DNA from: a virus
Strand: one strand, 5' to 3'
DNA: 64,000 bases
IMG/VR virus record: IMGVR_UViG_3300044712_002679
Coordinates: 52,406 to 116,405 of that record
Numbering within the stretch: the first letter of the stretch is position 1; each line of letters starts with the position of its first letter. The notes beneath the pieces were generated by a model, which worked only from the letters and a program-made list of their open reading frames with translations, did not search any database and was not told where the DNA came from. This document shows, piece by piece, positions 8,702 through 63,165 of the stretch. Made by a program: the position numbers and the translations under genes.

Positions 8702-9124
8702 ATGAAAAAACTATTTTTATTATTAACAATATTATTATTTAATATTGGATTATTTGCGCAAAATCAGCGATATTATGATGTTAGAAATTATATCATAAAT
8801 TTAGGTTATACGATAGATGAAACTTCAAATGTTTGGCATCAAAATTTAACTGAAAAAGAATTTTTTTATAATTATAAAACTTATTATCAGGATACTGAAT
8901 ATATATTAGTTGCCTTTTCACAAGATTTGGATGTTTTAGATATTGATTTATGGTTATGTAATACTGATAATAGTATCTTTAAAAAGGATACAGATATCGA
9001 AAATTCAGCAGTTTTAACTTTTTGTCCTGCACAAAATTATTATATGAAGACTGTTGTACAAAATTACAGTTCGAATTATCCAACTTACCCATCTACGTGT
9101 TGGTTGATTATTGGATATAAATAA
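8702..9124 (+). CDS. secreted hypothetical protein
   Basis: Signal peptide MKKLFLLLTILLFNIGLFAQ with an AQ/N cleavage context. A terminator follows. Confidence 0.5.
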   Translation: MKKLFLLLTILLFNIGLFAQNQRYYDVRNYIINLGYTIDETSNVWHQNLTEKEFFYNYKTYYQDTEYILVAFSQDLDVLDIDLWLCNTDNSIFKKDTDIENSAVLTFCPAQNYYMKTVVQNYSSNYPTYPSTCWLIIGYK

Positions 9125-9131
9125 ATAAAAA

Positions 9132-9157
9132 AAGGTAGTTTTTAACTACCTTTTTTT
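9132..9157. terminator. bidirectional intrinsic terminator between convergent genes
   Basis: aaaaaaggtagtttttaactacctttttttt: stem ggtagtt/aactacc flanked by an A-run and a T-run. Confidence 0.65.
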
Positions 9158-9178
9158 ATTTTTATTTTATAGAATGGT

Positions 9179-11209
9179 TTACCAACTACCACCACCTCCA
9201 CCACCACCAAAATCACCGCCACCGCTACTGAAGCTACTTCCACTATCATAACTACTGCTACTGCTACTTCCACTATCATAACTTGAATAGCTATTATAAG
9301 AATTTCTTCTACGATCTTCATCTTCCCGTTCTCTACGTCTACGATCTTCTTCTCTACGTCTACGATCTTCTTCTTCTTGTATCCTACGAATTCTTTCTAT
9401 TTCGTTTTGAATATCTTGTTTTATATTTCGTAGTAAATTGTCAAGTTCATCTATAATGTTTTTAAGCGTTTCTGCCCCATAAATCACATCAACAATAGGT
9501 GTGGTCATAAACATGGTAGCCTTTGATTTAAGTGTATTAAAAACAGATTTACGGTTAGATGTCACACCATCTTTATTGATATTATTTTCGATACTTGAAA
9601 TATAATCAGATATTTTAGATTTATTTAAACTTATATATGATAAGCTGTTGTTATAATCAGAAAATAACTTATTAATAGTTTCAAAATAATTTAAGATAGA
9701 TGTTTTTTCTAATAAATATGCATTGTATGTTTTTATTGCATTATCTAAATCATCATTTTTTAAAAATTTTTCACTATCAACCAATAATAATCTTAAATTG
9801 TTATCAATTTCATCAATATTAATATTTTTTGAAAAATCACCAATTTTTGCATTAGATAAAATATTTTTTTGTTCTAAATAATTTAAATATGATTTTTTTA
9901 AAGATTTTGTAATGTTTATAATAAATGAATTAATTTCATCAACAATATCATTAACCTTATCGAGTTTAATTTTAAATGCATTAAATTTAGAATTAATAAT
10001 ATTTATCGTTTTTTTGAGTTTGATTAAATTTTCTGTTGTATATTCAGTATTGATTTCGATAATATTTAATATTAAATTTAATTCATTTATATTTGATTCA
10101 ATACAATATCTAAATTTGTGTTCAACCCAATTAGATATTTCTATTTTCTTATTTTCAAGATATTTAATACATTCATTAATATCTAATATCATTTTTTTAT
10201 AATCAGATAACTTATTATATACTGTCTGTAGTTCAGTTTGAGTTTCAGTAGTTACAATTTTTGAATCCATATATAAATCTTCAAGGTCTTTTGGTAATTT
10301 TATATTTAATTCAGAAAATGAATTATAAATTTTTTGAATATCATCGGTTATACCTAATATACTTGTTACTAATTTCTTATATTTTACCAATTCAAATTTA
10401 ATATTATTATTATAATTTTTGGTATCTTCAGTTATAAGTTTTTTTGTCAAATGGAAAATTCTAGAATTATACATATTTTCAAGATTAATAGGTAATTTGT
10501 ACCCACTAGAAATAATCCAAGAATAAAGTGTATTAATATCAAAATTAATAGTATTTATTTCATTTTTTAATTTTAAAAGTACTTGTTTTCTTTTATTTAA
10601 GAAATATATCAAATATCCAATACCTGCTAATAGTATTAAAATTAATAATATATTCAACAAATGACTAAAAAAATTAGATACAGCAGCTTTATGTTCAGCA
10701 GCTTTACGTTCCTTATTTTTTATTAAAAAAGCATAACCATCAAATCCGATTTTATCCTGACATGCAACAATAAATGCACGTAAGCCATCATAATACAATT
10801 CATTTTTAAAATATGGAATTAGATCTGAATCTCTATATCTAGATAACCAACCATCAGGTAAAAATTCTTCAAGTCCATATCCTGTTCGGTATTCAATATG
10901 TCGTTGAGCTTTTGAAAAAATTATAACAAATCCATTATTAAGTCCTTTTTGACCAATTTTCCATTGTTTAGCCAAATCAGTAGAATACATAAAATCAAAA
11001 TTCGCAGAAGTCGCTAAACAAAATTGAATAGATGTTTTTGCTTCATAATCTTTCATTATATTTATTAAATCAGCTTTTTCATCTGGTGTGAACACACCTT
11101 CAAGATCAACCACATAGTTATCTGGTTCTGCTATATCCATTAAATTTTGACATAACACACTTGAATAACTTAAAATAATAATAAATACTAATAATACTAT
11201 TTTTTTCAT
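9179..11209 (-). CDS. TPM-domain (YgcG-like) membrane protein with long coiled-coil insert and Gly-rich C-terminus
   Basis: Signal peptide, then a TPM/TLP18.3-like N-domain (LEGVFTPDEKADLINIMKDYEAKTSIQF...). One TM helix follows (LLNILLILILLAGIGYLIYFL). There is a long Asn/Ile-rich coiled coil, an EEDRRRRE repeat, and a terminal SSGGGDFGGGGGGGSW tail as in E. coli YgcG. Confidence 0.65.
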   Translation of the reverse strand: MKKIVLLVFIIILSYSSVLCQNLMDIAEPDNYVVDLEGVFTPDEKADLINIMKDYEAKTSIQFCLATSANFDFMYSTDLAKQWKIGQKGLNNGFVIIFSKAQRHIEYRTGYGLEEFLPDGWLSRYRDSDLIPYFKNELYYDGLRAFIVACQDKIGFDGYAFLIKNKERKAAEHKAAVSNFFSHLLNILLILILLAGIGYLIYFLNKRKQVLLKLKNEINTINFDINTLYSWIISSGYKLPINLENMYNSRIFHLTKKLITEDTKNYNNNIKFELVKYKKLVTSILGITDDIQKIYNSFSELNIKLPKDLEDLYMDSKIVTTETQTELQTVYNKLSDYKKMILDINECIKYLENKKIEISNWVEHKFRYCIESNINELNLILNIIEINTEYTTENLIKLKKTINIINSKFNAFKIKLDKVNDIVDEINSFIINITKSLKKSYLNYLEQKNILSNAKIGDFSKNINIDEIDNNLRLLLVDSEKFLKNDDLDNAIKTYNAYLLEKTSILNYFETINKLFSDYNNSLSYISLNKSKISDYISSIENNINKDGVTSNRKSVFNTLKSKATMFMTTPIVDVIYGAETLKNIIDELDNLLRNIKQDIQNEIERIRRIQEEEDRRRREEDRRRREREDEDRRRNSYNSYSSYDSGSSSSSSYDSGSSFSSGGGDFGGGGGGGSW

Positions 11210-11329
11210 TTGAACAAGTTTTAATTAATAATTCAACAAAGATAGATATTTGTTTTTATAAAACCAAAAAATGACCCAAATATTTTAATATATAACTTAA
11301 CTTAAAATTCAAAAACAAAAGAATTAATT

Positions 11330-12640
11330 ATGACTCAAATCACTAAATTGAATAAATCAAATGAAAATATAATTGATTTATTACAAAACAAAGAATTACT
11401 CATATATGAAGATATACAAGGTGCGCAAATTTTTGTGAAATGGACTGGTCAAAAATTTATAATTAAACCTAAATCAATCAGCAATACAGAATTAAATTTT
11501 GTTGATTTAGCAACACAAAAATTTTATAATACGGTTTTTAATCATTGTTACACTCTACCTGAATATGTGACAAATTTATTATCACCAACTTGGTGGTTTT
11601 GTTTTGAATATTTTCCAGATAATCAACCTGCACATATTGAATATAAAAAAATTCCAAAAAATAATTTAATATTAACATGTATTGTTAAAGGAACTAAATA
11701 TAAATACAATTATGATGAAATAGTTGAATATGCTAAATTATTAGATGTTGATTCACTACCTGTAATATTTAAAGGAAAATTAAATGATAAACAATTAGAA
11801 GTTATAAATTTATTTTTACATACATCTGAAAATGATTTAGATTATGTTTTTGGTGAAAATAATTTTGCATATTTTTTTTATAAAATATTAAACCCAAATT
11901 TACAAAATTCGTTTTTGATGGATGATTTTAATGATAATTTAGAAAAAATTATAATTCGAATTGATGGAAATGATGAACAATCATTTGAAATATTCAATCC
12001 CAATTATGAAAAAATGAATTTGAGTAATAAAACTGAATATTTAGATACATATACATTAATATTGTTAAATTTTTTAGAATTCTTACAGCTTATTGATTTT
12101 GATAAAGTTAAATTGAAAGAAATCACAAAGGATGAACTATATATTGAATTTATTTCGATAGTTTTTAATGAATTTGCTGATAATATAAAAAAGGAAATAA
12201 AAACTTGGAACTTATCTATACCTGGATTTTTTTCTGATGATAAATTTAAAATTAATACATTTTTATTAAAAAATCAAAAAACAATAGATATAATTAAATC
12301 TGATGATAAATTTGAATATTTTTTTAAACTTATCTTAGGATCATTCAATAAAACAAAAAAGAAACCTATCGGTATTTTTGATGAAAAAACTGTTGAATTG
12401 TTTAATAAAGAAGTTAAAAAAATATCTAATTATTTAGAATCAGTATTAAAAATAAATCGTGAATATTTATTAAGAAATAATGACTTACTAAATTTTAAAG
12501 ATTATTTTAATGTCAATTATAACACAGATAGCCAAGGTGATATATATCCTGATGTGGATAAACTAATGTCAGAAATACCAGATGGTGAAGAAAAGAAAAA
12601 GAAATCATCTATGCCCCCAACAAAAAAACCTACTAAGTAG
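11330..12640 (+). CDS. hypothetical protein (ends in tandem TAG-TAG)
   Basis: 436-aa ORF; the stop is tag tag. Confidence 0.5.
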   Translation: MTQITKLNKSNENIIDLLQNKELLIYEDIQGAQIFVKWTGQKFIIKPKSISNTELNFVDLATQKFYNTVFNHCYTLPEYVTNLLSPTWWFCFEYFPDNQPAHIEYKKIPKNNLILTCIVKGTKYKYNYDEIVEYAKLLDVDSLPVIFKGKLNDKQLEVINLFLHTSENDLDYVFGENNFAYFFYKILNPNLQNSFLMDDFNDNLEKIIIRIDGNDEQSFEIFNPNYEKMNLSNKTEYLDTYTLILLNFLEFLQLIDFDKVKLKEITKDELYIEFISIVFNEFADNIKKEIKTWNLSIPGFFSDDKFKINTFLLKNQKTIDIIKSDDKFEYFFKLILGSFNKTKKKPIGIFDEKTVELFNKEVKKISNYLESVLKINREYLLRNNDLLNFKDYFNVNYNTDSQGDIYPDVDKLMSEIPDGEEKKKKSSMPPTKKPTK

Positions 12641-13466
12641 TAGGTTTTTTTATTATATTATTTTGATAACTTCTAATACAGGATCGACAACTTGGGATAA
12701 AAACACCATAAAACCGTGTATTAATTTCTTTAAACACTTCCCTAAATCCACTTTCTAAATAATTTTCAACATTTTCATATTTCCAACACCCAAATCCACA
12801 TTTATAAATATCACCTTCTTCATCAATTAAAAAAGAATATTTTTTATCCGGATTACTACAATATGTTCCAAACATTGAATAACGTCCATACGTAAACATA
12901 GACCTACCAATAGGAATCATATCTTCTTCTTTTTCTTTTAAAGTCGATTCAAATGTTTTAATATTATATTTTGTTAAATATTCTTTCGCTTTTTCATTAT
13001 TTATATTGTGATGAAAACTATCTTTAGATATTGATACATAAATATTATCAAATTGTGATAAAAATTTTGCAAAATCATCATCAATTGCAGCCCAATCACC
13101 GTTTGATACTATTCTAACAACTTGGGCTACTGGAATTATATTTAATAGAATATCTTTGTAGTTTGGATTACAAAATATTTCACCACCCATAACATTTAAT
13201 GAATATACTCCATTATTTTTAATGAATTTACTAATTTTTAATGATGTTTCAATAGACATATGGATATCATTGTTTGGTGAACATTCATAACAACAATGAC
13301 TACAAGATTGGGTGCATTTTAATGTTATTCTAATAGTAGCTGATAAACGTTTAGGACATTCTTTAAAAACATTACATGTTGAACAATTACATTTATGTTC
13401 AGTTTTATTACATACTTTATCTAAACAGATATCACAAGCTGGAAATTTATCAAAAAAATCTTTCAT
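12633..13466 (-). CDS. radical SAM enzyme (Cys-rich N-extension, possible auxiliary cluster)
   Basis: CTQSCSHC fits CX3CX2C within ...TLKCTQSCSHCCYEC. Extra Cys motifs occur N-terminally (CDICLDKVC, CNCSTC) and C-terminally (CGFGC). The stop is also a tandem TAG-TAG. Confidence 0.65.
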   Translation of the reverse strand: MKDFFDKFPACDICLDKVCNKTEHKCNCSTCNVFKECPKRLSATIRITLKCTQSCSHCCYECSPNNDIHMSIETSLKISKFIKNNGVYSLNVMGGEIFCNPNYKDILLNIIPVAQVVRIVSNGDWAAIDDDFAKFLSQFDNIYVSISKDSFHHNINNEKAKEYLTKYNIKTFESTLKEKEEDMIPIGRSMFTYGRYSMFGTYCSNPDKKYSFLIDEEGDIYKCGFGCWKYENVENYLESGFREVFKEINTRFYGVFIPSCRSCIRSYQNNIIKKPTT

Positions 13467-13522
13467 TTTTAATTTTTTATAAATTCAGCACAAAGATAAT
13501 ATAATAATAGATAAGAACAAAT

Positions 13523-14197
13523 TTAATTTGGAATATTTAACTGATTTTTTATATAAATATAGTCATCATCACACATTTTACCACTTGAAAAACAACTATA
13601 ATTCCAATCATCATTAATTTTTCCTTTTGATAACATATGACATAAATTCATAACATAATGTCCCTTTGATCCTAATATACGATAATTATCATTTTGGGGT
13701 TGAGTTTCAAATTCCCAAGGAGTTTTTACATCTTTTAAATAATTTAAAAAAAACATTCTATTCCAAATTGAATTTATTAATGATAATCTATAATTAACAT
13801 TTTGATATAATTCGATAATATTATCATTCACATAAAACCAACCTTGATATACTTTAAGGCTTTTATCATCTAGAATAGATATAACTCGTGATTCAATATC
13901 TTTTGTTAATCCAATTCTACCAACACTATTATCTAAATGCATTTCTAATTTTTTTAATAATTCTGTATCAACATCAGACATAAGAATCATATCATTTAAT
14001 ATTAATATAAAAAAATCATCATCAATATTAGAAAAATAATTATAAAAATCATCAGCCCAAAATTCGGGTGAACGATATTCATTACTAAATTTAATTATAT
14101 TTAAATCTATATTGTTACTCCAATATTTATTTATAGAATATTTTAAAATGTTTGTAATGTGTTCTGTACCTTGTGGTTCATGTACGTATACTTTCAT
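13523..14197 (-). CDS. hypothetical protein
   Basis: 224-aa ORF; overlaps the NUDIX gene in ATGA. Confidence 0.45.
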   Translation of the reverse strand: MKVYVHEPQGTEHITNILKYSINKYWSNNIDLNIIKFSNEYRSPEFWADDFYNYFSNIDDDFFILILNDMILMSDVDTELLKKLEMHLDNSVGRIGLTKDIESRVISILDDKSLKVYQGWFYVNDNIIELYQNVNYRLSLINSIWNRMFFLNYLKDVKTPWEFETQPQNDNYRILGSKGHYVMNLCHMLSKGKINDDWNYSCFSSGKMCDDDYIYIKNQLNIPN

Positions 14198-14691
14198 AAA
14201 ATAGCATCTTTTATGATTTTTAGTGATTTATAATCATTTAATAATAATTCTAATCCTGGATGTTTTTTCTTTAAATTCAATAATTCTTCAAATGTAACCC
14301 ATTTATAACCATCTGATTCCCAATTTAATATTGGTTTAAATTCCTTATCAATAATTCCTATAAAATTGTGGTATTCGAATGTTCTATTACCATTTCTAAA
14401 AATATAAGCTGGTATTAATTCTAAATAATCATTATACCCTGTTTCTTGATCTAATTCATAAATAACGGTATCTTCCAAACTATCACCTTCTTCTACTTTA
14501 CCACCCCACAAACCCCATGTATGAGGTTCATTAACATACGATGATCTATAACAAAGTAATATTCTTTTTGTTTCAGTTGATATTGGCAAACATCCTGCTG
14601 CAACATTACCCCAAAATGCTTCACCAGCATCATTATCATATACTGCGTGAGTACCATCACCAAAATATTCGAAGGTTTTTATATATTTCAT
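14194..14691 (-). CDS. NUDIX hydrolase
   Basis: Nudix box GGKVEEGDSLEDTVIYELDQETG (GX5EX7REUXEEXGU pattern); 165 aa. Confidence 0.75.
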   Translation of the reverse strand: MKYIKTFEYFGDGTHAVYDNDAGEAFWGNVAAGCLPISTETKRILLCYRSSYVNEPHTWGLWGGKVEEGDSLEDTVIYELDQETGYNDYLELIPAYIFRNGNRTFEYHNFIGIIDKEFKPILNWESDGYKWVTFEELLNLKKKHPGLELLLNDYKSLKIIKDAIL

Positions 14692-32218: not shown

Positions 32219-33271
32219 TTATCCTATTTTTTTTCTAATATTAAGTATAACTTCTTTAATAGTATTATTATCAATATCATCAGGTAAATCTGTTTTTGTA
32301 TAAACTTCAACTAATCTATCGGATTTTTCTTTTATTTTTTTCATAATTTCATCATATGAAATTAAACCTTTTTTAACAGATAATAACCAATCCCGATCAG
32401 GTCGAATCAAATTAACACCATCACCACACCCAATTTCAATAGCCATATCAAGCAATCTATTACAATGAAGCATATTTTTTCCATCATAATTTTGATTGTG
32501 TGATATATTATCATTGTATCTAACAGGATTTCTATGTTCTACCCATTCCCAATATTCTTTGTATTCTTTACAATAACAAACATATCCATTCTTGTTATAA
32601 GTCAAAAATCCTTCTAATTGATAATTTTTTGGGATTTCACTATGCCTTATGGAATTTGAATTATCTTTAATGATACCTTTGAAATTTTCACCATAATATA
32701 TTTTATATAATTCGACACCATTTGGCATTTGTGCTAATCCAATATTTTTCTGATCATATCCCATTTTTCTTAACCATTGATTTGCTAACATCATATATCC
32801 AGTTTCTTTATCAAAAATATGACAAAAATCTAATGGTGTTTTTTTCTCTTTTTCAATTGGATTAACAATTTTCTTATTTAACCCTCTTGCTTTTTTTATT
32901 TGTGATATAGCATACCCACCAAAAGTGTGTTGTAATTTTTTTGTTAAAAAACTTTCCTTGTTAACTAAAACATTACTTTTAAATAATGGATGACAATATT
33001 GAATCATATTATCGTTTGAAAATAACAATTCAATAATATTTGGATTATTTTCTTTTATTAATTCCATAAACCTATTCAATTCATAATATGTGATATTATT
33101 ACTATCATCACTTATTTGTGGAATATATTCATTGGTTAATAAATAATCGTTAGGCAATAAAAACACACCTTTTATATCAATATCAGATTCAGGTGTATTT
33201 AATCCATATGCTTGACTACCAACAATCGCTTTGAAAAGCAAATATTTATCAATATTTTCTAAGGTTATCAT
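32219..33271 (-). CDS. Pol-beta-superfamily nucleotidyltransferase (PF10127-like minimal NTase N-domain)
   Basis: GSQAYGLNTPESDIDI (hG[GS]x9-13Dh[DE]h) at residues 18-33, followed by a ~300-aa helical extension. Confidence 0.65.
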   Translation of the reverse strand: MITLENIDKYLLFKAIVGSQAYGLNTPESDIDIKGVFLLPNDYLLTNEYIPQISDDSNNITYYELNRFMELIKENNPNIIELLFSNDNMIQYCHPLFKSNVLVNKESFLTKKLQHTFGGYAISQIKKARGLNKKIVNPIEKEKKTPLDFCHIFDKETGYMMLANQWLRKMGYDQKNIGLAQMPNGVELYKIYYGENFKGIIKDNSNSIRHSEIPKNYQLEGFLTYNKNGYVCYCKEYKEYWEWVEHRNPVRYNDNISHNQNYDGKNMLHCNRLLDMAIEIGCGDGVNLIRPDRDWLLSVKKGLISYDEIMKKIKEKSDRLVEVYTKTDLPDDIDNNTIKEVILNIRKKIG

Positions 33272-35056: not shown

Positions 35057-35117
35057 AATTTATTTAATTTTAATTGATACAAAGATAATAAAATATTTTT
35101 AATTACAAAAATTAAAT

Positions 35118-41424: not shown

Positions 41425-42177
41425 ATGTCAATGACAATTGATCAATTAGTGGATATAGTACAAGGTGATTTAACAATTTCTGGGTTGTTTGATAAAATTT
41501 TACCCGATATTGAAATTATTCGTTTAGTTAGAGAAGAAGCATTAGAATGGTTCTACAAAAATTATCAATTTTCTAAAATTAAAATATTTTATTTTTTAGA
41601 AAAAAATTTTATGACAACAGAACAATATCATAGGAACCAATATTTAATACTTCCCCCAGAAGTTGAAGACATTGTAAGAATCGTAAAAATTGATAACCCC
41701 ACACTCTTTCGTCTTGGTATACAAGCCCCCCATTTATCCATAAATCTAGGTGTTACAAATCAACCATTTTTGACATCATTTGTTACAACTGCTGGTGAAC
41801 TTGGTGTTTATCGTTCGGTTATTAGTAATTTTGCAGATCAAATAAATAAAATGACCCATAATACAATACGATTTAATTATAATCATATTAGTAAAAGATT
41901 ACAATTATTGACATCAATTGATACGGATTTGATGTTAGAAGTTTATAGTAGAATTGAAGAAGAAGAAATGTTCGATAATGTCTATTTTAAACAATATGTT
42001 ATTGGAATGTGTCAAATGAGAATGGGTCAGGCTGTTGGTAGATTCAATTTTAATATGCCAGGAAATTTTCAATATAATGCTGCTGATATGATTACCCAAG
42101 GTGAAAAAAAGATGACTGATGTTATCGAAAAAATTAAAGCTGAAACTAACGTGTGTTGGTTTATTATGGATAGATAG
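41425..42177 (+). CDS. hypothetical protein (paralog of 41146..41397; ends TAG, in frame with next ORF)
   Basis: 250 aa; the stop is TAG at 42175-42177. Confidence 0.5.
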   Translation: MSMTIDQLVDIVQGDLTISGLFDKILPDIEIIRLVREEALEWFYKNYQFSKIKIFYFLEKNFMTTEQYHRNQYLILPPEVEDIVRIVKIDNPTLFRLGIQAPHLSINLGVTNQPFLTSFVTTAGELGVYRSVISNFADQINKMTHNTIRFNYNHISKRLQLLTSIDTDLMLEVYSRIEEEEMFDNVYFKQYVIGMCQMRMGQAVGRFNFNMPGNFQYNAADMITQGEKKMTDVIEKIKAETNVCWFIMDR

Positions 42178-42180
42178 ATA

Positions 42181-42516
42181 ATGAAGTATTTGAAAACATT
42201 TGAAGAAACTATAATATGTGGTATCACATACAAATATGATGTGGGTGATTATGTATTGCTCAATAAAGAAGAAATGGATAAAAATACAATAGAAGATCAT
42301 GTGTCACCACACGATTTAGTTGAATTTAAAGTAAAAATAATAGAAATAAGAACTAAAGATGAATATGGAAAACAATATCCATACCCATACATAATTGAAA
42401 CTTTTGATAATAAAAAATGTGCAATTAAAGATACAGAAATACTTCGAAAATTAACAGTCAATGAAATTGAAGAATATAAAATCAAAAAATTATCAAAAAA
42501 ATATAATATTTTATAA
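42181..42516 (+). CDS. small-protein paralog family member (MKYLKTFEE N-terminus, C-terminal KKYNIL)
   Basis: 111 aa; shares both ends with 30127..30441; a terminator follows. Confidence 0.55.
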   Translation: MKYLKTFEETIICGITYKYDVGDYVLLNKEEMDKNTIEDHVSPHDLVEFKVKIIEIRTKDEYGKQYPYPYIIETFDNKKCAIKDTEILRKLTVNEIEEYKIKKLSKKYNIL

Positions 42517-47421: not shown

Positions 47422-47784
47422 ATGGAAAAATTGACATTAGAAACATTCAAAGAAAAAATAATGAACTATGAAATTAATAAAAATGAATGGAAATTTGAAG
47501 GAAAATTACCAGCCATTATTGATTTTTATGCTGATTGGTGTGGTCCATGCAAAATGATATCACCAATTCTCGATTCATTAAGTAAAGAATATGATGGTAA
47601 GGTTGATATTTATAAAGTTAATACCGAAGAAGAACAAGAATTATCAGCGATGTTTGGTATAAGAAGTATTCCATCAATATTATTTATCCCCATTATTGGT
47701 GACCCACAAATGAATTTGGGTGCATTATCAAAAGATAAATTCATAGAAGCGATAAATGATGTGTTATTAAAAAAAGAGTTGTAA
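47422..47784 (+). CDS. trx: thioredoxin
   Basis: FYADWCGPCKMISP active site (WCGPC) with the usual flanking fold; 120 aa. Confidence 0.85.
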   Translation: MEKLTLETFKEKIMNYEINKNEWKFEGKLPAIIDFYADWCGPCKMISPILDSLSKEYDGKVDIYKVNTEEEQELSAMFGIRSIPSILFIPIIGDPQMNLGALSKDKFIEAINDVLLKKEL

Positions 47785-47796: not shown

Positions 47797-48057
47797 TTAT
47801 TTATTAAATAGCTTAATTAAAGCATCATATAATCCACTTTGTTCATTTGTAAAATTTCTTCGATATAGTTCGAGTTCAATTCCTCTAATAAAAACACAAT
47901 CAATAATTGTATCTAAAATTTCATCTTCTGATGGTTTAATTTTTGCATCATCATTAGCTTGCCAACCAAGAATAAACGTTTGTAGATCAGCACTAGTAAC
48001 CATTGGATACTTTTTTTTGAATGCAACTACTGCATCATTAAGTTTTTTATTTTCCAT
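47797..48057 (-). CDS. hypothetical protein
   Basis: 86-aa ORF. Confidence 0.4.
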   Translation of the reverse strand: MENKKLNDAVVAFKKKYPMVTSADLQTFILGWQANDDAKIKPSEDEILDTIIDCVFIRGIELELYRRNFTNEQSGLYDALIKLFNK

Positions 48058-48364
48058 TTTTTAAATCAATTTTAATTGCTAATTCTTTTGAACTTCCTAT
48101 TTTTTTATATAAATCATCAGGATGATATCCTGGTTTCCATTCAACACCCCCAGAAATATGAAATTTTTCGCATAATAAATGATGATCGGGACAAACAGTT
48201 ATACCATTTTCGATTATATATCCACCATTTGGCATTTCATTTCTATCTGTAATGTGATGTGCATCAAGATCATGTTTTATATCACAAAAAACACATTTGT
48301 GATGATCTCGTTCGAAAACTTTATTTCTAAAATTTTCCCTTATTTGTTTTTTACTTATTCCCAT
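48047..48364 (-). CDS. HNH endonuclease
   Basis: HHKCVFCD...DAHHITDRNEMPNGGYIIENGITVCPDHH: an HNH motif with paired Cys/His. Confidence 0.8.
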   Translation of the reverse strand: MGISKKQIRENFRNKVFERDHHKCVFCDIKHDLDAHHITDRNEMPNGGYIIENGITVCPDHHLLCEKFHISGGVEWKPGYHPDDLYKKIGSSKELAIKIDLKNGK

Positions 48365-48660
48365 TTATGAATATCATATTTTTCCATTATTACAAGAACT
48401 GAAACCCATCCATTATTTGCCAACGATATAGATGATGTTTTTACAATATATCCTTCTGATGTTTTTTTATCAATAAAATAATTAACTTGATTCATTTCAT
48501 TAGTCCGAATTGTTTTGCAATATGTTACAGTCGATAATGGTTTATCTGGCTGAATATGCATCAAATTTGATTCTCTAATTGGATTTGATTTTGTTGGTTC
48601 TGAATTTGCTACACAAATCGCTAACAAAATACTTACAAAAAATACTAATATTACTTTCAT
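48355..48660 (-). CDS. small secreted protein (start moved to MKVILVFF)
   Basis: The listed ORF's first 25 codons are antisense to the tRNA gene. The internal Met begins a typical signal peptide MKVILVFFVSILLAICVANSEP. Confidence 0.45.
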   Translation of the reverse strand: MKVILVFFVSILLAICVANSEPTKSNPIRESNLMHIQPDKPLSTVTYCKTIRTNEMNQVNYFIDKKTSEGYIVKTSSISLANNGWVSVLVIMEKYDIHKWE

Positions 48661-48678
48661 TTTTTTAATTAATGTTAG

Positions 48679-48749
48679 TATCCTAGTCGGGAATCGAACC
48701 CGAGATAAAGGTTTTAGAGACCTCCGCTTTACCACTTAGCTACTAGAAC
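48679..48749 (-). tRNA. tRNA with anticodon CUA (amber-suppressor type, tRNA-Sup)
   Basis: Hand-folded cloverleaf. Acceptor GTTCTAG/CTAGGAT (7 bp, two G-U). D arm GCTA-AGTGGTA-AAGC. Anticodon stem GAGGT/ACCTT with loop C-T-CTA-A-A (U33, A37). 4-nt variable loop. T arm TCGGG-TTCGATT-CCCGA. Discriminator A; no encoded CCA. Confidence 0.7.
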
Positions 48750-48861
48750 GAATAAAAAACAACCAATAATCTGACTTTCTTGAATTACTCACCAGATAGT
48801 ACCCCTTAGCTTTGTAGTATCAGTTGTTCATAATAGTGGATACAAATATACTTATTAATTA

Positions 48862-49281
48862 TTAATTTACCAAACTTTTATAGAAATTACCTTTTTCTTT
48901 TTTGTATTCCATTAAAAGTTTTTCAGATTCAGCTTGTGCTTTTAACCAAGCTTTTCTTGTATTTTGAATTGCTTCTTCTTTAGCTGAAACTTTAATACGT
49001 ATTCTACCAATACAAAAATTTTGGGTTAAAATACCAAAGAATGTATTAATTCTTCTTAATGTTGGTTTGTTACTAATCCAAAAACAATATTTTTGGATTT
49101 TTTTCATTTGATTCTTTGATATGTTTTTATCAAATTTATCAATATTCCGGATTTTACCCGACACTTGAAATTTGTTATTTTTAACTACGTTTTCAATTAT
49201 ATCAATTGTATTATTGATCACGTTCTTTAATTCACTCTTGTTGTATGTGTAATTTACACCATTTTCTACTATTGCTTCCAT
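48862..49281 (-). CDS. hypothetical protein
   Basis: 139-aa ORF. Confidence 0.4.
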   Translation of the reverse strand: MEAIVENGVNYTYNKSELKNVINNTIDIIENVVKNNKFQVSGKIRNIDKFDKNISKNQMKKIQKYCFWISNKPTLRRINTFFGILTQNFCIGRIRIKVSAKEEAIQNTRKAWLKAQAESEKLLMEYKKEKGNFYKSLVN

Positions 49282-49394
49282 AATTTTATTTATTTATTTT
49301 TTTTATTTATAATATTTGTTGTTTTATGATATTCCAATTATGGAAACTATTAAGGTGGTTTAATCTAGAACATAACTTCCTCCTTTCTTTTTTT

Positions 49395-49643
49395 TTATAA
49401 TTCAGTTTCAATTATTTTATAAAATTTATATTTTTCTAACCAACCCCAACCCAATTCTTCATGACCCCAATTTATCCAATAAGAATTTGAATAATTTGAA
49501 TTGTTTTGTAATTTATAAACCATATCTAAATGATGCATATATTTTTTCGCATCATCAAAATTATCAAAAATCTTATCATAATTATTGTTGTGTTCATAAT
49601 CATAAAATCGGATTTTTATTACATATTTTTCTTTACTAGACAT
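49395..49643 (-). CDS. hypothetical small protein
   Basis: 82 aa; overlaps the PTH2 stop. Confidence 0.4.
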   Translation of the reverse strand: MSSKEKYVIKIRFYDYEHNNNYDKIFDNFDDAKKYMHHLDMVYKLQNNSNYSNSYWINWGHEELGWGWLEKYKFYKIIETEL

Positions 49644-50025
49644 AGCAATTTTCCTTTCTTACATAAGAATTTTTATCAATTTTATCAATAGATTTATATT
49701 CCTTTAACATTAAAGGATATGATGATAATAATCGTCTAGATTGATCAGATGGTTCAATAGCAATAGCTGTTATTTGATCATCGAGATCAGGTTCTCTGAA
49801 GATAGAATACTTAATATTGTTTTTTTGTAATTTTTCGATGAGATTTTTGAGATCATCTTCATCTGCACACGATAATTGTGCTAAATATGGTTCTTTTATC
49901 CATAATTTTGCAATTTCTGGATGTTCAAAGACAAATTGAATAGCAGCATGGGATGCCATTACAGCTTGATATCCTGCGGTTGTATCACGTCTTGATACTG
50001 TTGATAATTTGTAAATCTAAGTCAT
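49636..50025 (-). CDS. pth2: peptidyl-tRNA hydrolase PTH2 family; in-frame TAG at codon 3 (50017-50019)
   Basis: ...RRDTTAGYQAVMASHAAIQ aligns with the PTH2 ...R.D.KMGKGKIAAQCSHAA core. W, an acidic DEDDL block, and TAIAIEP (PTH2 TVLGIGP) follow at the right spacing. The N-terminal strand IYKLSTVSRRD is only encoded upstream of the listed Met and downstream of ATG-ACT-TAG, which has a good SD (AAAGGA, 6-nt spacer). Confidence 0.6.
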
Positions 50026-50195
50026 AATATTTTTCCTTTTTACTTATATATAAAATTTTTTAATTTGTTTTTGTAAATGTATGTATATTTTTTAAATATA
50101 CAAATTATTATTCATATTATTTATATTTTTAACATAATAACATAATTTGACTTTTTATTTTATATATAAAAATTTTACTTTTTGTTTTATTTTTC

Positions 50196-50561
50196 TTATA
50201 ATATTTCACCCAAAACAGCACCATCCTTTTTCCGAATCAATAGTGGAACGTTGCTACCACTTAATTCAATATTAACATTTCCTTTTTTTATTTCGGATAT
50301 GATTTGATTGTTGGTATATCTTTGATTACCTGCTTCATCATTACTGATATGAATAGTCAAGATCATCTTTGGTTTATTTCTAAGGTCTTTACGATTAGGA
50401 TTGTACATATGCTTAGTGACATCATCTAGCCAACCATTTTCTTTTGCTTTACGATACGCTGTGGCATCACGAACACTAAATTCTGTTCGAGTTACATATT
50501 TTTTTGCGATTATTTCACAAGCATCTTTAGTCCAAGTAAATCCTGTTCTTCTTTCCTTCAT
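50196..50561 (-). CDS. hypothetical protein
   Basis: 121-aa ORF at the distal end of the 50-60 kb operon. Confidence 0.4.
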   Translation of the reverse strand: MKERRTGFTWTKDACEIIAKKYVTRTEFSVRDATAYRKAKENGWLDDVTKHMYNPNRKDLRNKPKMILTIHISNDEAGNQRYTNNQIISEIKKGNVNIELSGSNVPLLIRKKDGAVLGEIL

Positions 50562-51031: not shown

Positions 51032-52177
51032 TTAATTTATTTGTTTTAAATTTAAATCATTAACATCATTTGTAATAATATGTGGCATAAAATAAGACAT
51101 ATTATTAGTAATTTTACAATCTGTTTCACGAATACCAATTCCACAAGATTCCCCACCAATCACCCAAGAACCAATAATAGGATATTTTCCATCTTGTGGT
51201 TCAATTTCGACAAGTTCCTGGTAAATGAATCCTTCTTCACCATATTCACCACAAGTTTCACAATCCAACACACCATTTTTATATAATGATACATTGGCAC
51301 CTTCACGGGAATATATTGGTTTTTTACAATAATTACCCGATATCAGTGGATTTGTGTCCGCATTTAGAATATATGGTGAAGTAGGAAACAATTTTGATAA
51401 TACTACAAGCATATACTTATTACTCATAATAGCTTTCCACAACGGTTCAATGAAAGTCGTTTCACAATTTGGTATAGATTTACCAAATTCTTCATTAAAC
51501 ATCCATTCATATGGATATAATTTGAATAAAAAGTCAATATGTTGATCAGATTTATTATAAAACAAATCATCTTGACAATCAATATCTTCAATATCAAATA
51601 TTGATGTATTTAATCCCGCTTCAGCAGCAGTTGATAAAATATATGATGTTGTTGTATAATCTTCTAAATTATCACAAATACAACAAAAATCTACACGTTC
51701 ACTTTCATAATCTTTTTGAATATCAATCCAACTTTGTATCAATGCTTCGTGAAGACTATTAAATTGATCATTTTTGGGAAATAAATCTTCTTTCCATTCC
51801 CATTGAACTACACTTGCTTCAAATAATGATGTTGGTGTATCTGCATTAAATTCAAGTAATTTAATTTTACCATTTACAAAAGCAAAATCAAACCTACCAT
51901 ATAAACTTAATTCATCGTTTTCCCAACTATCAATCAATGTCGGAACAATATATCTTGGGATATGTAATTCATCCCAAAGATCGTTCTTTATGACATATTC
52001 AACAGCATCAATATACATTTGATAACATGCATTTGTTGCCGTTTCGATTTCAGTTATTTGTTTTTTAGAAAATTCATAATATGCATTTTCCAACCAATAA
52101 TTAGCATCAAAATAAAAACCTAAATCTTGAATTTTTTCTTTGTAATTAATTCTTGGTGCAATTGTAATTCTTTTCAT
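51032..52177 (-). CDS. glutathionylspermidine synthase-like (GspS/YgiC/YjfC family) ATP-grasp amidoligase
   Basis: Family hallmark RFDFAFVNGKIKLLEFNADTPTSLFEASVVQWEW (the E(Y/F)NADTP block) plus overall ~380-aa length. Confidence 0.7.
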   Translation of the reverse strand: MKRITIAPRINYKEKIQDLGFYFDANYWLENAYYEFSKKQITEIETATNACYQMYIDAVEYVIKNDLWDELHIPRYIVPTLIDSWENDELSLYGRFDFAFVNGKIKLLEFNADTPTSLFEASVVQWEWKEDLFPKNDQFNSLHEALIQSWIDIQKDYESERVDFCCICDNLEDYTTTSYILSTAAEAGLNTSIFDIEDIDCQDDLFYNKSDQHIDFLFKLYPYEWMFNEEFGKSIPNCETTFIEPLWKAIMSNKYMLVVLSKLFPTSPYILNADTNPLISGNYCKKPIYSREGANVSLYKNGVLDCETCGEYGEEGFIYQELVEIEPQDGKYPIIGSWVIGGESCGIGIRETDCKITNNMSYFMPHIITNDVNDLNLKQIN

Positions 52178-52585: not shown

Positions 52586-52664
52586 AAATCTTAAACTTTT
52601 TAATTTTTAATTTATTTTTAAAGATTCAAATATATAAAACTTTTTAATATTTTCAAAATTATTT

Positions 52665-54347
52665 TTATTTTTTATTGATAAAATATACAGAATCATGATT
52701 AACCACAATTATACCACCATTGGTACAATGTATTACTGAATTTTCAAATATTTCAGTACTTTGATAACTTACCAATTCTTGCATATTAGAAGAATTAATT
52801 AATGTTAATTTATCATCTTCTGGCATAACCAAAATGTTATCATTTAAATAATCAAACATTCGTAATGATGTATAAGTTGAATCAAATATTTCAACTTGCA
52901 AATTTTTGATAAAAAACATTTTATAACAAACGCTTTCGTTTTCAATAACCTCAATTATACCAAATTGTCCACTTTGATGTAAATTCTTTATTTTATATTT
53001 TAAAAATGCTGAATTTAATCCATTTTTTTCATAAAATAAAACGGTATTACCTGATACATTTTGATATAAACTATATAAGCTATTAAATCTGCCACCAAAA
53101 ACTTCAGTTGTATCATATGATATTTTATCACCAAATTTATTGTTAAGATCAAATTTATACATAGTATCATTTGTGACAATAACTAAAATATTGTTGTATA
53201 AATCGGATTTTAAATTATTGGTATTAAATTTCATAATCACTTTATCATTCAATACATCAATCAAATTATTATCGACAATTGAATAAACATCGTTATTATA
53301 AACAAATAATTTGTTTTTAGTATTTATATTTTCTTTAATCAATATTAACTTAAATGTACCCTTTAATGAAACATCATAAACCAATAATTGATTTTTATCA
53401 TTCAACAAAACTAATCTATCTTTACTAGAATAACTATTAATAATATTTCCAGTATATTTGGCAATTAATGTGTGTATCACGAGTTCATTTGTTTTAATTA
53501 CTGTTGGTATAACTACTTTTTGTGTTTTTACTACAGGTTGTTGTACTTTACTATTCAAATCAATAATAAATCGTTCACCATTATTAAATATTCTTTCAAA
53601 TTGAATTAATATATTTGGATTTGAAATCGGTTCATAACATTTTGGTACAATAACATCAGAACTATTCAGTATAGATTTTTTATTGAACATTCTATCTGAA
53701 ATTTTAGGCATAGTTTTACAAACACCTTTAAATGGATGTGTGTATGTTAACCCATTAAACGCCAATACACCAAGTGCAAAATAATCACTTTTTATAGTAA
53801 CATTTCCACCATATAAATAATCTCTAATATCATCTAACAATATTCCGGAATGCTTAATTGATGGGGTTTCATAGGAATCAACATCCAAAAAATATATCAT
53901 ACCCCTATCATTTACTAAAATATTGTATGGATTGAGATCACCAATTACAATATTTTTGGAATGTGCAAATTTTACAGCATCAATAAGTCTTTCAATTATT
54001 AATTCTTTAATTTTATCTGTAATACCTTCACGAATACAAAAATTTTTATTGAAAACAGACAACAATGGATAAAAATTTGATGGAACTTTTCGCATAATAA
54101 ACCCAATGACCTTTTTTCTATCATCAAATAATAATTCATCAGGTTTAATAAAAATATTATTTTTTAATTCAGATAATTCATTAAATTTGGTTTCGGCAAT
54201 TGGTTTAATATTGGGTAAATATATTTTTGCAACCTTATCAGTCGAAATATCTATTATCTTACCTTCACCACCCCTAGCAATTTCATTACTTTCGTTGATA
54301 TTGTATAATAAATCACCTTTTTTGTTATATGCTTTCAACATAATCAA
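52665..54347 (-). CDS. Ser/Thr protein kinase-like domain protein with large C-terminal extension
   Basis: Gly-rich loop ARGGEGKI, VAKIY lysine, catalytic-loop analogue HSKNIVIGDLNPYNILV, and DFG analogue FLDVDSYE within the first ~200 aa; 560 aa total. Confidence 0.6.
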   Translation of the reverse strand: MIMLKAYNKKGDLLYNINESNEIARGGEGKIIDISTDKVAKIYLPNIKPIAETKFNELSELKNNIFIKPDELLFDDRKKVIGFIMRKVPSNFYPLLSVFNKNFCIREGITDKIKELIIERLIDAVKFAHSKNIVIGDLNPYNILVNDRGMIYFLDVDSYETPSIKHSGILLDDIRDYLYGGNVTIKSDYFALGVLAFNGLTYTHPFKGVCKTMPKISDRMFNKKSILNSSDVIVPKCYEPISNPNILIQFERIFNNGERFIIDLNSKVQQPVVKTQKVVIPTVIKTNELVIHTLIAKYTGNIINSYSSKDRLVLLNDKNQLLVYDVSLKGTFKLILIKENINTKNKLFVYNNDVYSIVDNNLIDVLNDKVIMKFNTNNLKSDLYNNILVIVTNDTMYKFDLNNKFGDKISYDTTEVFGGRFNSLYSLYQNVSGNTVLFYEKNGLNSAFLKYKIKNLHQSGQFGIIEVIENESVCYKMFFIKNLQVEIFDSTYTSLRMFDYLNDNILVMPEDDKLTLINSSNMQELVSYQSTEIFENSVIHCTNGGIIVVNHDSVYFINKK

Positions 54348-55801: not shown

Positions 55802-56524
55802 TTAATAAATAAATCTAACAACTGATAAATCATCAAAATTTGAATATCCATTTTTTGGTTGTGTCAAAATATTATATTTTCTAGCCAACATAACTTCACT
55901 ATCAATTAATTTTTTATCATATAATAAATCTTCTATAACATTTGAATATGTTTTAGATGAATCGGAATTTCTGAATGAATAAATACCATCTGAACAAATA
56001 GATAATCCATTTTGTATATTATCAAATTTGAATTTTTTAATGTTTTTTTCATACACATCAAAAACTTTTTCATTTAAATGGTATGCTAAATAATCTGGTG
56101 CATTTTCAAATGATTCTAGTTTTATTTCTTTATCATCAACCACAATACAACCATCACCAGAAACTATGATATAAGCTTGATTTTCTTTAAAAAAGACAAT
56201 AATAAAAGTTGATAATATTTCTAAGTCTTTTAAACTTAATGTGTGTTTGATTTTCTTTAATTTATTAAAAAACTTAACAAATGTTTGTTTAGCAATATCT
56301 TCTAATGAATGATCCCCATCATCAAACATTTGATATGTTTTTGTATTTAAAACCCTATTTAAGATTTTAGAATATAAATTAGATGCAAAATGACTTTTTG
56401 TTCCAGTTGAACAACCATCAAAAACTGCACCAACATAATATGGTTCGGCAATAGAAAAAAACAGATCATCCTCGCAATTAACGGGATGATCTGTTCCTTT
56501 TTTTAATACTGTCCTAATTAACAT
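55802..56524 (-). CDS. PP2C-family Ser/Thr phosphatase
   Basis: VGAVFDGCSTG (PP2C motif hhGhFDGHGG with a Cys variant), then SGDGCIV and SDG acidic motifs at the expected spacing; 240 aa. Confidence 0.65.
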   Translation of the reverse strand: MLIRTVLKKGTDHPVNCEDDLFFSIAEPYYVGAVFDGCSTGTKSHFASNLYSKILNRVLNTKTYQMFDDGDHSLEDIAKQTFVKFFNKLKKIKHTLSLKDLEILSTFIIVFFKENQAYIIVSGDGCIVVDDKEIKLESFENAPDYLAYHLNEKVFDVYEKNIKKFKFDNIQNGLSICSDGIYSFRNSDSSKTYSNVIEDLLYDKKLIDSEVMLARKYNILTQPKNGYSNFDDLSVVRFIY

Positions 56525-60742: not shown

Positions 60743-61089
60743 TGTATAAATATTAATTACAATACAAAGATAGCAAAAAATATAATATTATCCAAATAAA
60801 AAATCAATTATTCTGTAGCCAGGATTCTGTCATTTAAATCTCACATTTATCTAAAGTCTTTCGACTTTCCTTTCCAAAGAAAGGCGCACCAACCCGTTCT
60901 CATAAAATCGCTCACCTTCTCGAACTGTTTGGCTTGCTATCTCAGTAGTAAAAACGACTTATTAAGTCTCCTACTTTGAGCGAAATAGTCCTGAACTTCC
61001 TCTAATTTTTCAACCAGCGTAAGATCAAATAATCAATTTCATACAAAGATACAAAAAATATTTTAATATCAAAAATTTATATATAAAAT

Positions 61090-61874: not shown

Positions 61875-62399
61875 TCAAATAGTAATATATTTCACAGGCA
61901 CATTATCAGTTAACCAAACATTATTTTCACTTAAATAAAATTTTATTCCATCAGCATACATTGCAGCAGAATCAATTTTCAATATGATTGGGGAATTACG
62001 TTTTGAATAACGCTTTCCAACTGAATATGCAACATCTTCTTTGTCTGTTAAATGGACATGAAGTCGATTCATTTTAGATAGTCCCGTTTTTTGAATAATC
62101 TTATAACTTTCAGGTGATGTTCCATGATAAAGTATTTTTGGTGGTCTAGCTGATTTAAGTTCAACATCAACCTTAATTGAATGACCTTGTGATGCCCTTA
62201 TCTTTGTTTTATCTTCATTATAAGCCAATCTTTTCTTGTCATTAGTATCAACAATGTGATCTAATTCTTTTTGTGTTATTTTAACTTTACTTAAAAGTGA
62301 ATTAACATCAACATATCCGTGTTTATCCATCATTAAATCTTCTGGATTGTGTCGCAATAAATACGATATGTGCTTCCCGATTTGTATATAATCTTTCAT
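61875..62399 (-). CDS. kptA: RNA 2'-phosphotransferase Tpt1/KptA
   Basis: ISYLLRHNPE...GYVDV..LL...RASQGHS...ILYHGT...GL...LHVHL is collinear with the Tpt1/KptA family over 174 aa. Confidence 0.85.
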   Translation of the reverse strand: MKDYIQIGKHISYLLRHNPEDLMMDKHGYVDVNSLLSKVKITQKELDHIVDTNDKKRLAYNEDKTKIRASQGHSIKVDVELKSARPPKILYHGTSPESYKIIQKTGLSKMNRLHVHLTDKEDVAYSVGKRYSKRNSPIILKIDSAAMYADGIKFYLSENNVWLTDNVPVKYITI

Positions 62400-62478: not shown

Positions 62479-63165
62479 TTAATTACACCAATCAAATCTT
62501 AATTCACCATTTGGAAATAGTGTTTGTTTTGTTTCATCGTATATTGGTTCAGGTAAATTGAATATTGGCACTAAATCCATATCACGTTTATCACTATTGT
62601 CTCGTATTACCCAATACGATATATTATTCAATCCTATTTTATTTAAGCTATTTTTTATTTTTTCTAAATCATTAACAGTAGATATCCCACCTTTAAATAG
62701 TGGTATATTTATTCTAATAACAAGATTTGTAATATTTTCAATATCTTTAAGTTTAGCCATTGTTGGTGGTAAAAATTTTGTTTTTAATGTTTTTTTTGAT
62801 TTATTTGGATCAATATTGTGTACGGTAACATATAAATGTGTAAGACCCATTTTTTTCCACTTTTTTAAATAATCTATAGAAGATTCTAACAAAATTCCAT
62901 TAGTATATAATTTTATCTTTTTAATGTTAAAATCACGAAGGGTATATAATGTTCTACTTATTTCATCTAAATGAAGTAATGGTTCACCACCACCAGAAAT
63001 AGATAATTCTTCTAATGTATCTATATTATCCTTTACGATTGTTTTTAATAATTCGAAATCAAATATCTTAGCTGTTCTATGTTGTCTTCCTGCACAAAAT
63101 GAACAATTTGCATTGCACCGTTCATTAGCAACCAAAACACCCAATTTTCTTATCCCAATTGACAT
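62479..63165 (-). CDS. radical SAM enzyme (QueE/NrdG/PFL-activase-like small class)
   Basis: CNANCSFCAG (CX3CX2C) at residues 17-24 and SGGGEPLL glycine-rich SAM motif; 228 aa. Confidence 0.7.
   Translation of the reverse strand: MSIGIRKLGVLVANERCNANCSFCAGRQHRTAKIFDFELLKTIVKDNIDTLEELSISGGGEPLLHLDEISRTLYTLRDFNIKKIKLYTNGILLESSIDYLKKWKKMGLTHLYVTVHNIDPNKSKKTLKTKFLPPTMAKLKDIENITNLVIRINIPLFKGGISTVNDLEKIKNSLNKIGLNNISYWVIRDNSDKRDMDLVPIFNLPEPIYDETKQTLFPNGELRFDWCN

Follow-up and report, generated by a model that had tools for sequence, protein, structure and literature searches.

A 64,000-nt stretch of the IMG/VR virus record IMGVR_UViG_3300044712_002679 (positions 52,406 to 116,405 of that record; hereafter, the window) carries on its minus strand a transfer RNA (tRNA) gene with the anticodon CUA (48679..48749) and, about 0.9 kb upstream on the same strand, a gene of the peptidyl-tRNA hydrolase 2 family (PTH2-like gene, 49636..50025) whose third codon is an in-frame TAG. 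We consider it probable, at roughly 0.6, that the tRNA is a functional phage amber suppressor kept in a conserved same-strand module with this amber-gated Pth2-like gene, and that TAG is otherwise a stop codon. The tRNA itself is of a known type; the gated module appears to be new.

The tRNA had been described in an earlier note, made from the letters alone, as a cleanly folding 71-nt molecule on the minus strand with a 7-bp acceptor stem, a GG-containing D loop, a TTCGATT T loop, and CUA at positions 34-36 of a C-U-CUA-A-A loop, and all of these features were recovered. ARAGORN called a single tRNA in the whole 64-kb window (48678-48749, minus strand, anticodon cta), and the full Rfam model RF00005 (1-71) aligned from 48749 to 48679, scoring 64.5 bits (E=1e-11) where the gathering score is 29. 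The program and the covariance model independently placed CUA, and no other triplet, at positions 34-36 (48717-48715). In the Rfam alignment, the acceptor stem consisted of 7 bp (G1.U72, U2-A71, U3.G70, C4-G69, U5-A68, A6-U67, and G7-C66). The conserved U8, A14, G18G19, U33, T54-psi55-C56, and G15-C48 pair were found. The anticodon stem was 5 bp long, its loop was C-U-C-U-A-A-A with A36-A37-A38, the variable loop had 4 nt, the T loop was UUCGAUU, and the discriminator was A73; CCA was not encoded. The window tRNA is a textbook class-I elongator tRNA. An Rfam scan of 48300-50200 at E<=1 detected no ribozyme or other RNA family besides this tRNA.

When the window tRNA was aligned with 25 module-linked tRNA-CUA genes, the 7-nt loop CUCUAAA was invariant and compensatory changes were observed in 18 of the 20 stem pairs, the sequences being otherwise highly diverse. 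An invariant loop on covarying stems indicates that the conserved trait is a working UAG-reading tRNA and not one tRNA lineage. The A36-A37-A38 context is recognized by MiaA and favors UAG decoding. We infer that UAG is decoded as an amino acid by the window tRNA, and indirect support comes from the adjacent gene, whose conserved in-frame TAG co-varies with tRNA-CUA. The exact 71-nt sequence had no match in IMG/VR, and no convincing nearest isoacceptor was found among about 600 phage tRNAs or the 59 tRNAs of the related huge phage LR756501. The internal TAGs of PTH2-like homologs aligned with E, D, Q, N, S, or I, mostly with E, D, or Q, and the inserted amino acid is possibly Gln, Glu, or Lys. 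U35 with a weak 1:72 pair suits GlnRS, and U35 with A73 suits LysRS. The earlier note had proposed a Gln-, Lys-, or Tyr-like identity; the first two stand, and Tyr is unlikely with a bacterial host because bacterial tRNA-Tyr carries a long variable arm and the arm here is short. Gln is the residue favored in published work on recoded phages (PMC8346664; 10.1101/2021.08.26.457843).

The PTH2-like gene begins with ATG (50025-50023), ACT, and TAG (50019-50017), continues as ATT TAC AAA TTA into the PTH2 domain, and terminates at TAG 49638-49636 with TAA (49635-49633) directly behind; the distance from the gene to the tRNA is 887 nt. An open reading frame (ORF) finder gave a shortened form of 107 aa (49636-49959, minus strand) starting at an internal ATG at 49959. 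The 19 residues from the TAG to this ATG, IYKLSTVSRRDTTAGYQAV, aligned with the conserved N-terminus of the homologs, KLxVVTRRDLxPGYQAVQ. The shortened ORF matched PF01981 only from profile position 22 with 21.7 bits, which is under the cut-off of 23; with the N-terminus restored, the score was 25.4 bits, and those of relatives were 30.7 and 38.1 bits over profile positions 2-103. The family profile matched the archaeal Pth2 2zv3_A from residue 1 (residues 1-115, E=1.6e-8), the start coinciding with the gate, and also 24bt, 1rzw, and 1q7s at the sequence-profile level. Since the 22 residues after the TAG are homologous to the beginning of the PTH2 fold, the Pfam cut-off is passed only with them, and 2zv3 is aligned from its first residue, the gene appears to need its TAG to be read. 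The window held no other ATG-led short leader ending in TAG, and no second ATG-NNN-TAG followed by at least 70 sense codons. Compared with Pth2 (PF01981; 2zv3, 1rzw, and 1q7s Bit1), the window protein has a full-length profile match and shares with its family the conserved His (H23), the R-x-D-L strand, and the TA(I/V)A..P motif. It differs in being phage-encoded, in lacking the GKGK loop, in having F-x-E-P-D for D-A-G-x-T, and in its N-terminal amber codon.

Conservation of the gate was investigated in 80 IMG/VR loci fetched by PTH2-like protein similarity alone (with the narrower alignment A2, the broader A1 being too diverse). We defined the module as an ATG, one to eight codons, and a TAG that abuts the PTH2 domain, accompanied by a tRNA-CUA no more than a few kb away on the same strand. 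The gate was present in 75 of the 80 loci (58/62 distinct proteins). Its leader consisted of ATG plus one codon in 43 loci, ATG plus two in 16, and a longer stretch in the remainder (1-8 codons overall). The stop closing the leader was TAG in 75/75 and TAA in none, although TAA makes up about 80% of the stops in these AT-rich genomes. ATG, GTG, or TTG occurred within 12 codons past the TAG in just 14/75 gated loci, and the base after the TAG was A in 59, G in 14, and C in 2 (a purine in 73/75). tRNA-CUA was found within 5 kb in 62 of the 75 gated loci, every time on the same strand and either 28-200 nt upstream or 19-3264 nt downstream, compared with none of the five ungated loci (hypergeometric p ~4e-4, hand-calculated). 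In the reverse direction, a loose tRNA-CUA pattern retrieved 71 IMG/VR contigs. With two GenBank loci fetched by DNA similarity added, a PTH2-like homolog was present in 27 loci, 8-3264 nt from the tRNA and always on its strand, and 24 of the 28 homologs of the tRNA-selected set had an ATG-(1-8 codons)-TAG leader. tRNA-CUA and the gated PTH2-like gene are tightly coupled in evolution. Programmed read-through of the PTH2 gene, which the earlier note had raised as a possibility, was thus strongly linked to the tRNA, the TAG found at codon 3 in the window being kept in 75/80 loci along with a same-strand tRNA-CUA.

The pairing also extends to cultured phages. A tblastn search of GenBank phages detected the PTH2-like protein in 233 records, of which 207 are cluster-C mycobacteriophages that annotate it as 'peptidyl tRNA hydrolase'. 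In Bxz1 (gp154), the gene is preceded by GAAGG-c-ATG-TAG-GTG, and a tRNA with the anticodon CTA lies 305 nt downstream on the same strand (L155 6657-6729); recorded as 'tRNA-OTHER', it heads an array of 27 tRNAs and a transfer-messenger RNA (tmRNA). In Myrna (gp84), the gene is preceded by GGAGG-c-GTG-TAG-GTG, and a tRNA-CTA recorded as tRNA-Ser lies 130 nt downstream on the same strand (L156 3463-3534). Like the window, these cluster-C mycobacteriophages have a start codon, a TAG, and the PTH2-like domain in series with a same-strand tRNA-CUA, here 130-305 nt downstream; unlike it, they have a Gram-positive host, a tRNA array, and, after the TAG, a GTG that is a possible start. Neither record labels its tRNA-CUA a suppressor. 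We take the GC content of Bxz1 and Myrna to be high, at about 64%. In Lak-A1 (MK250017, L154), a divergent and ungated PTH2-like gene was found at ~9880-10280, and a tRNA with the ochre-type anticodon UUA (9194-9266) lies 620 nt upstream of it. All Lak phages were reported in published work to carry such a TTA-anticodon tRNA without known use.

Relatives of the source phage gave a view of the module in a complete genome. The conserved protein encoded directly upstream of the tRNA, ORF139 (48862..49281, minus strand), was 100% identical to a protein from a 501,337-bp contig, which assigns the window to a megaphage. In GenBank, the window proteins were closest to those of the non-Lak huge phages LR756501/3, LR756504, LR745206, and LR756502 of Al-Shayeb et al. 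2020, Lak phages being more distant; the source phage is related to these non-Lak 'Mahaphage' genomes. The complete 735-kb genome LR756501 (L001) is syntenic: its PTH2-like gene is gated, has a further TAG internally, and is accompanied by an ORF139 homolog and a pair of tRNA-CUA genes. The 59 tRNAs of this genome are in arrays more than 320 kb from that pair. Code-11 ORFs cover 88% of LR756501, and its 821 ORFs end in 627 TAA, 159 TGA, and 35 TAG stops. Its long-frame junctions numbered 18 for TAG vs 27 for the TGA control overall, and 4 vs 3 for clean ones. Amber-gated genes in LR756501 were not enriched over TGA/TAA controls, and the PTH2-like gene was the sole conspicuous TAG client. LR756501, the best complete relative available, therefore uses the standard code, seldom terminates genes with TAG, and carries its suppressor module as a self-contained unit. 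The ENA contigs L173 and L174, found via ORF139, share the arrangement of the window, and LR756500 also carries the module.

Three further observations were made on these homologs. A second in-frame TAG occurs in some of them (FP#IY in L001, L173, and L174; FP#NT in L050; EPG#VS in L058), and those of L001, L173, L174, and L050 fall in one alignment column, where relatives mostly carry Glu. In L173 (ENA ERZ4201038 contig), the source annotation has no gene over the two-TAG PTH2-like sequence at 8843-9202. In LR756500 (L175), a 14-codon remnant at ~5330-5380, 'ATG AAA TAG ATT AAA...', repeats the gate motif right after the stop of the PTH2-like gene and may be a trace of duplication.

The window (24.7% GC) is densely coding under the standard code. 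The 81 non-overlapping ORFs of at least 80 aa end in 67 TAA, 7 TGA, and 7 TAG stops, and frames of at least 100 codons cover 0.91 of the window with TAG as a stop and 0.91 with TAG as sense. These values agree with the earlier note, which had counted at least seven ORFs ending in TAG, two of them in tandem TAG-TAG, and had argued for a suppressor coexisting with amber stops without wholesale recoding, as holds within the window. Its further statement that no long ORF is broken by TAG was correct for internal breaks and overlooked codon 3 of the PTH2-like gene (50025-49636), which is the only in-frame TAG inside any of the ~85 window genes. Neither many internal TAGs nor a coding density increased by TAG as sense, the marks of code 15, was seen within the window, and no RF2 or aminoacyl-tRNA synthetase gene appeared among the Pfam/PHROG results for its ORFs. 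TAG behaves as a stop codon in the window.

The sole recognizable virion-type gene of the window is a head-tail adaptor-like (connector-like) gene (41425-42177, plus strand; phrog_211, E=5.5e-13), which has no internal TAG and terminates at TAG-A. In LR745206, the homologous gene is closed by TAA at that very residue, so that the TAG found here is a real stop. The gene is in frame with the next ORF (42181-42516, 111 aa), and suppression at its TAG would yield a 362-aa fusion; that 41425..42516 (plus strand) might be a second client of the suppressor is speculative, and a conserved read-through fusion was unsupported, as the LR745206 homolog lacks an in-frame follower. Unusually near back-up stops behind the TAG-ended genes were also considered and rejected, the distances (0-112 codons) being like those after TAA and TGA. 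The convergent genes 11330-12640 (plus strand) and 12633-13466 (minus strand) overlap by 8 nt and both end in TAG-TAG; the tandem TAGs at 12630-12643 sit in a palindrome, CTACTA..TAGTAG, and the read-through tail '#VFLL' is identical on both strands.

Here, we propose a model in which the amber-gated Pth2-like gene, one or two small ORFs, and tRNA-CUA form a same-strand module. The tRNA would be transcribed, probably from its own promoter (a motif lies 94 nt upstream), would obtain CCA from a host enzyme and its amino acid from a host synthetase, and would compete with host release factor 1 (RF1) at UAG. Codon 3 of the adjacent Pth2-like gene would be its demonstrable client: termination there should release a harmless dipeptide, and suppression should give the complete PTH2 fold. 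Because the full enzyme would be made only upon suppression, hydrolase output would be tied to suppressor activity relative to RF1, and the circuit may act as a sensor or AND-gate with a logic akin to that of the in-frame UGA of prfB. The hydrolase would most likely recycle peptidyl-tRNA or N-blocked aminoacyl-tRNA freed at read-through or stalling, a role that would fit its company, namely Tpt1 and RlaP in the window and tmRNA in Bxz1. The few TAG-ended genes of the phage would tolerate leaky read-through.

Several points weigh against this model. The window represents ~13% of a ~501-kb source genome, and recoded genes could lie elsewhere. LR756504 carries the gate, with no tRNA-CUA detected in the 5 kb around it. 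The Lys-rich GKGK loop is missing from the PTH2-like protein, and its aligned motif appears to have E for D (F-x-E-P-D vs D-A-G-x-T) among the residues that we take to be catalytic, so that hydrolase activity is not assured. The GTG that follows the TAG in Bxz1 and Myrna has a well-spaced Shine-Dalgarno sequence and could be the start codon, which makes the gate less certain there; the TAG and the tRNA linkage are nevertheless kept in both phages. Finally, a tRNA whose sole visible client is the neighboring gene leaves the benefit to the phage unexplained.

The alternative that survives best, although we regard it as unlikely, is that the source is a code-15 phage in which late genes elsewhere in the genome (for structure, lysis, and possibly replication) contain many in-frame TAGs and are switched on by the tRNA. 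Only 64 of ~501 kb is visible, and the low GC content and the rarity of TAG among the stops of the window agree with such a phage. Lak megaphages, relatives within one broad clade, are code-15 phages equipped with Sup-CTA tRNAs (PMC8346664), and recoded phages leave early regions and 'code-change' genes in the standard code (10.1101/2021.08.26.457843). More generally, the code-15 phages (Lak, crAss-like; Ivanova 2014; Devoto 2019; PMC8346664; 10.1101/2021.08.26.457843) resemble the present case in having tRNA-CUA, an AT-rich huge genome of the Mahaphage clade, TAG as a minority stop, and a standard-code machinery region. A few module-bearing IMG/VR loci, such as L025 and L067, are indeed locally TAG-recoded; the neighborhoods of the 80 loci showed no excess of in-frame TAG. 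In contrast to code-15 phages, the window has one N-terminal gate TAG among ~85 genes, and TAG ends 7-8 of its ORFs, including the connector-like gene, which lacks internal TAGs and ends in TAG where its homolog has TAA. Its nearest relatives are non-Lak, and the closest complete one, LR756501, shows neither genome-wide recoding nor an excess of TAG junctions over the TGA control; in Lak-A1 the PTH2-like gene is ungated and the tRNA reads UUA. Furthermore, the window yielded no RF2 or aminoacyl-tRNA synthetase gene, and the module is found in cultured mycobacteriophages annotated with ordinary coding sequences.

It appears distinctly improbable that the suppressor is directed at the host or at competing elements, where suppression at the TAG stops of host genes would upset host or defense proteins, or replaces a tRNA lost to host nucleases, with the gated enzyme as a safety or support device. 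Such an external benefit would be needed if no conspicuous TAG client exists apart from the PTH2-like gene, as in LR756501, and the Tpt1, RlaP, and radical-SAM genes of the window, as well as the tmRNA and large tRNA array accompanying the Bxz1 module, would suit it. However, the idea is purely inferential and leaves the placement of a TAG in the hydrolase gene unexplained; it is also compatible with the amber-gated module and does not exclude it.

We give very little weight to the view that the TAG is undecoded, ATG-X-TAG being a minimal upstream ORF with re-initiation at the next codon (ATT or GTN) and the tRNA being unrelated, a decoy, or a pseudogene. ATT, a possible rare start codon, follows the TAG in 44/75 loci, and GTG does so in Bxz1 and Myrna. 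A precedent exists in the bar minigenes of phage lambda, ORFs of two codons that make peptidyl-tRNA drop off and become toxic if Pth is in short supply; they share with the gate an AUG-X-stop mini-ORF functionally tied to peptidyl-tRNA hydrolase. Unlike in these minigenes, the stop found here is always UAG, is in frame with the downstream domain, and is linked to a cognate suppressor tRNA. A mini-ORF does not explain why the stop is never TAA in 75 gated loci despite the ~80% TAA usage, nor why the gate co-varies with a same-strand tRNA-CUA (62/75 vs 0/5). Many codons after the TAG are not starts (GTA, GTT, ACA, AGC, AAC, AAA, and CTT), extra internal TAGs occur in the homologs L001/L173/L174, L050, and L058, and the tRNA keeps all canonical features on covarying stems.

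An initiator-type or pyrrolysine (Pyl)-type tRNA, with UAG as a start codon or read as Pyl, can practically be dismissed, in spite of the TAG at the very start of the gene and the label tRNA-Pyl given by ARAGORN, which is merely the name that this program uses for a CUA anticodon. Initiation at UAG is possible with an E. coli initiator tRNA that carries a CUA mutation, and bacterial initiators are marked by a 1x72 mismatch, A11:U24, and three G:C pairs at 29-31:39-41; the window tRNA instead has C11:G24, G1.U72, and only two such G:C pairs (G29-C41 and G30-C40, followed by U31-A39), and among the 76 loci whose upstream in-frame stop is TAG, 75 have an ATG ahead of it in frame. Likewise, tRNA-Pyl has a short D loop without G18G19, a 6-bp anticodon stem, and a 3-nt variable loop, as opposed to the G18G19, canonical D and T loops, 5-bp anticodon stem, and 4-nt variable loop of the window tRNA, and no Pyl genes were among the Pfam matches of window ORFs.

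The amber-gated module can be compared with other systems in which translation factors and stop codons are coupled. TGA-recoded Jade phages have a 'code-change operon' composed of RF1, TrpRS, and Sup-tRNA (10.1101/2021.08.26.457843, Fig. S6). This operon likewise clusters a suppressor tRNA with translation-factor genes in the standard code; unlike it, the window pairs the tRNA with a Pth2-like hydrolase bearing the cognate stop at its 5' end, and the module occurs in phages without signs of recoding. In the autoregulation of prfB (RF2), an early in-frame UGA and a +1 frameshift sense RF2. Both cases have an early in-frame stop in a translation-related gene, whose synthesis is set by termination vs alternative decoding. 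The window would use a dedicated suppressor tRNA at UAG and its product is a putative hydrolase, and the relationship is one of analogy, not homology. Phage amber-suppressor tRNAs have been published, some in standard-code relatives, together with a path leading from low GC through loss of TAG/TGA stops and a suppressor tRNA to recoding. In open-access papers and bioRxiv preprints, the only literature covered, we found none tying Pth2/peptidyl-tRNA hydrolase or an N-terminal amber gate to phage suppressor tRNAs.

How the reassignment of a stop codon can start while the virus and its host both still terminate genes with it is an open question. The present locus offers a concrete intermediate, in which a suppressor would be fixed in standard-code genomes because a neighboring quality-control gene depends on it through a 5' amber codon. 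We tentatively suggest, at slightly short of an even chance, that tRNA-CUA and the gated gene form an autonomous, widespread circuit of self-monitored amber suppression and the seed from which late-gene TAG recoding repeatedly evolved. If this is true, the module ranges through standard-code phages from Bxz1 to 735-kb megaphages, brings controlled amber suppression into a standard-code host, and is a pre-adaptation for TAG-to-sense recoding. The pairing spans very distant phages including the cultured Bxz1 and Myrna, and is therefore directly testable. Annotation overlooks the module: the gated gene is cut short or dropped by gene callers, and the CUA tRNAs are labeled 'Pyl', 'tRNA-OTHER', or 'tRNA-Ser'.

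Regarding the neighborhood of the module, a promoter-like motif, TTTG-N20-TATATTTG (48843..48874, minus strand), is located in the ORF139-tRNA spacer, 94 nt before the 5' end of the tRNA. The pattern TTTG-N18-22-TAnnTTTG occurred 19 times in the window vs 6.9+-2.9 in shuffles, about a threefold enrichment, and 0/100 shuffles reached 19. The majority are positioned shortly before gene starts; further sites include 11237-11268, 13491-13521, 35080-35109, 52627-52657, and 60765-60796 (all on the minus strand). TTTG-N-TAnnTTTG is a consensus of Bacteroides promoters. The enrichment of this Bacteroidetes-type motif upstream of gene starts suggests that the host of the source phage is probably a member of Bacteroidota. 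In a sigma-70 scan around the module, promoter-like matches were not above those of shuffles, and no terminator was found between the hydrolase gene and the tRNA.

Homologs of ORF139 were located directly before tRNA-CUA in L001 (LR756501), L074-L080, L110, L173, and L174, always so in this lineage, and ORF139 may be a third component of the module. It had 51 homologs in the protein collection searched and no match in a single-protein search of IMG/VR. Its AlphaFold2 model was helical (predicted local distance difference test score, 88.5) and matched no PDB fold, the best Foldseek E-value being 1.4. The small ORF82 (49395..49643, minus strand) separates the PTH2-like gene from ORF139, shares 8 nt with the end of the former, and matched no Pfam family.

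Elsewhere in the window, a set of RNA/tRNA-care genes on the minus strand (61875-62399, 32219-33271, 62479-63165, 12633-13466, and 14194-14691) comprises a Tpt1/KptA RNA 2'-phosphotransferase (PF01885, 4e-46), an RlaP nucleotidyltransferase for RNA repair, two proteins of the radical-SAM type, and a NUDIX hydrolase. In L074, L076, L078, and L079, a Tpt1 homolog is encoded at a distance of 3-4 kb from the PTH2-like gene. A thioredoxin is encoded at 47422-47784 (plus strand; PF00085, 5.5e-22), and in 14 protein-selected IMG/VR loci a thioredoxin homolog of ~60% identity was found no farther than 1-2 kb from the PTH2-like/tRNA-CUA module. Accessory genes unusual for phages (51032-52177, 52665-54347, 55802-56524, and 9179-11209, minus strand) encode a glutathionylspermidine synthase (PF03738, 4e-128), a protein kinase/RIO-like protein, a PP2C phosphatase, and a TPM-domain protein. 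Homing-endonuclease-like genes were assigned at 4216-5019 (minus strand) by PHROG families and, as an HNH_2-like gene, at 48047-48364 (minus strand), immediately downstream of the tRNA region. A degenerate PTH2-like fragment in L136/L137 lies beside homologs of the window genes 4216-6343, which hints at rearrangement around homing-endonuclease-like elements.

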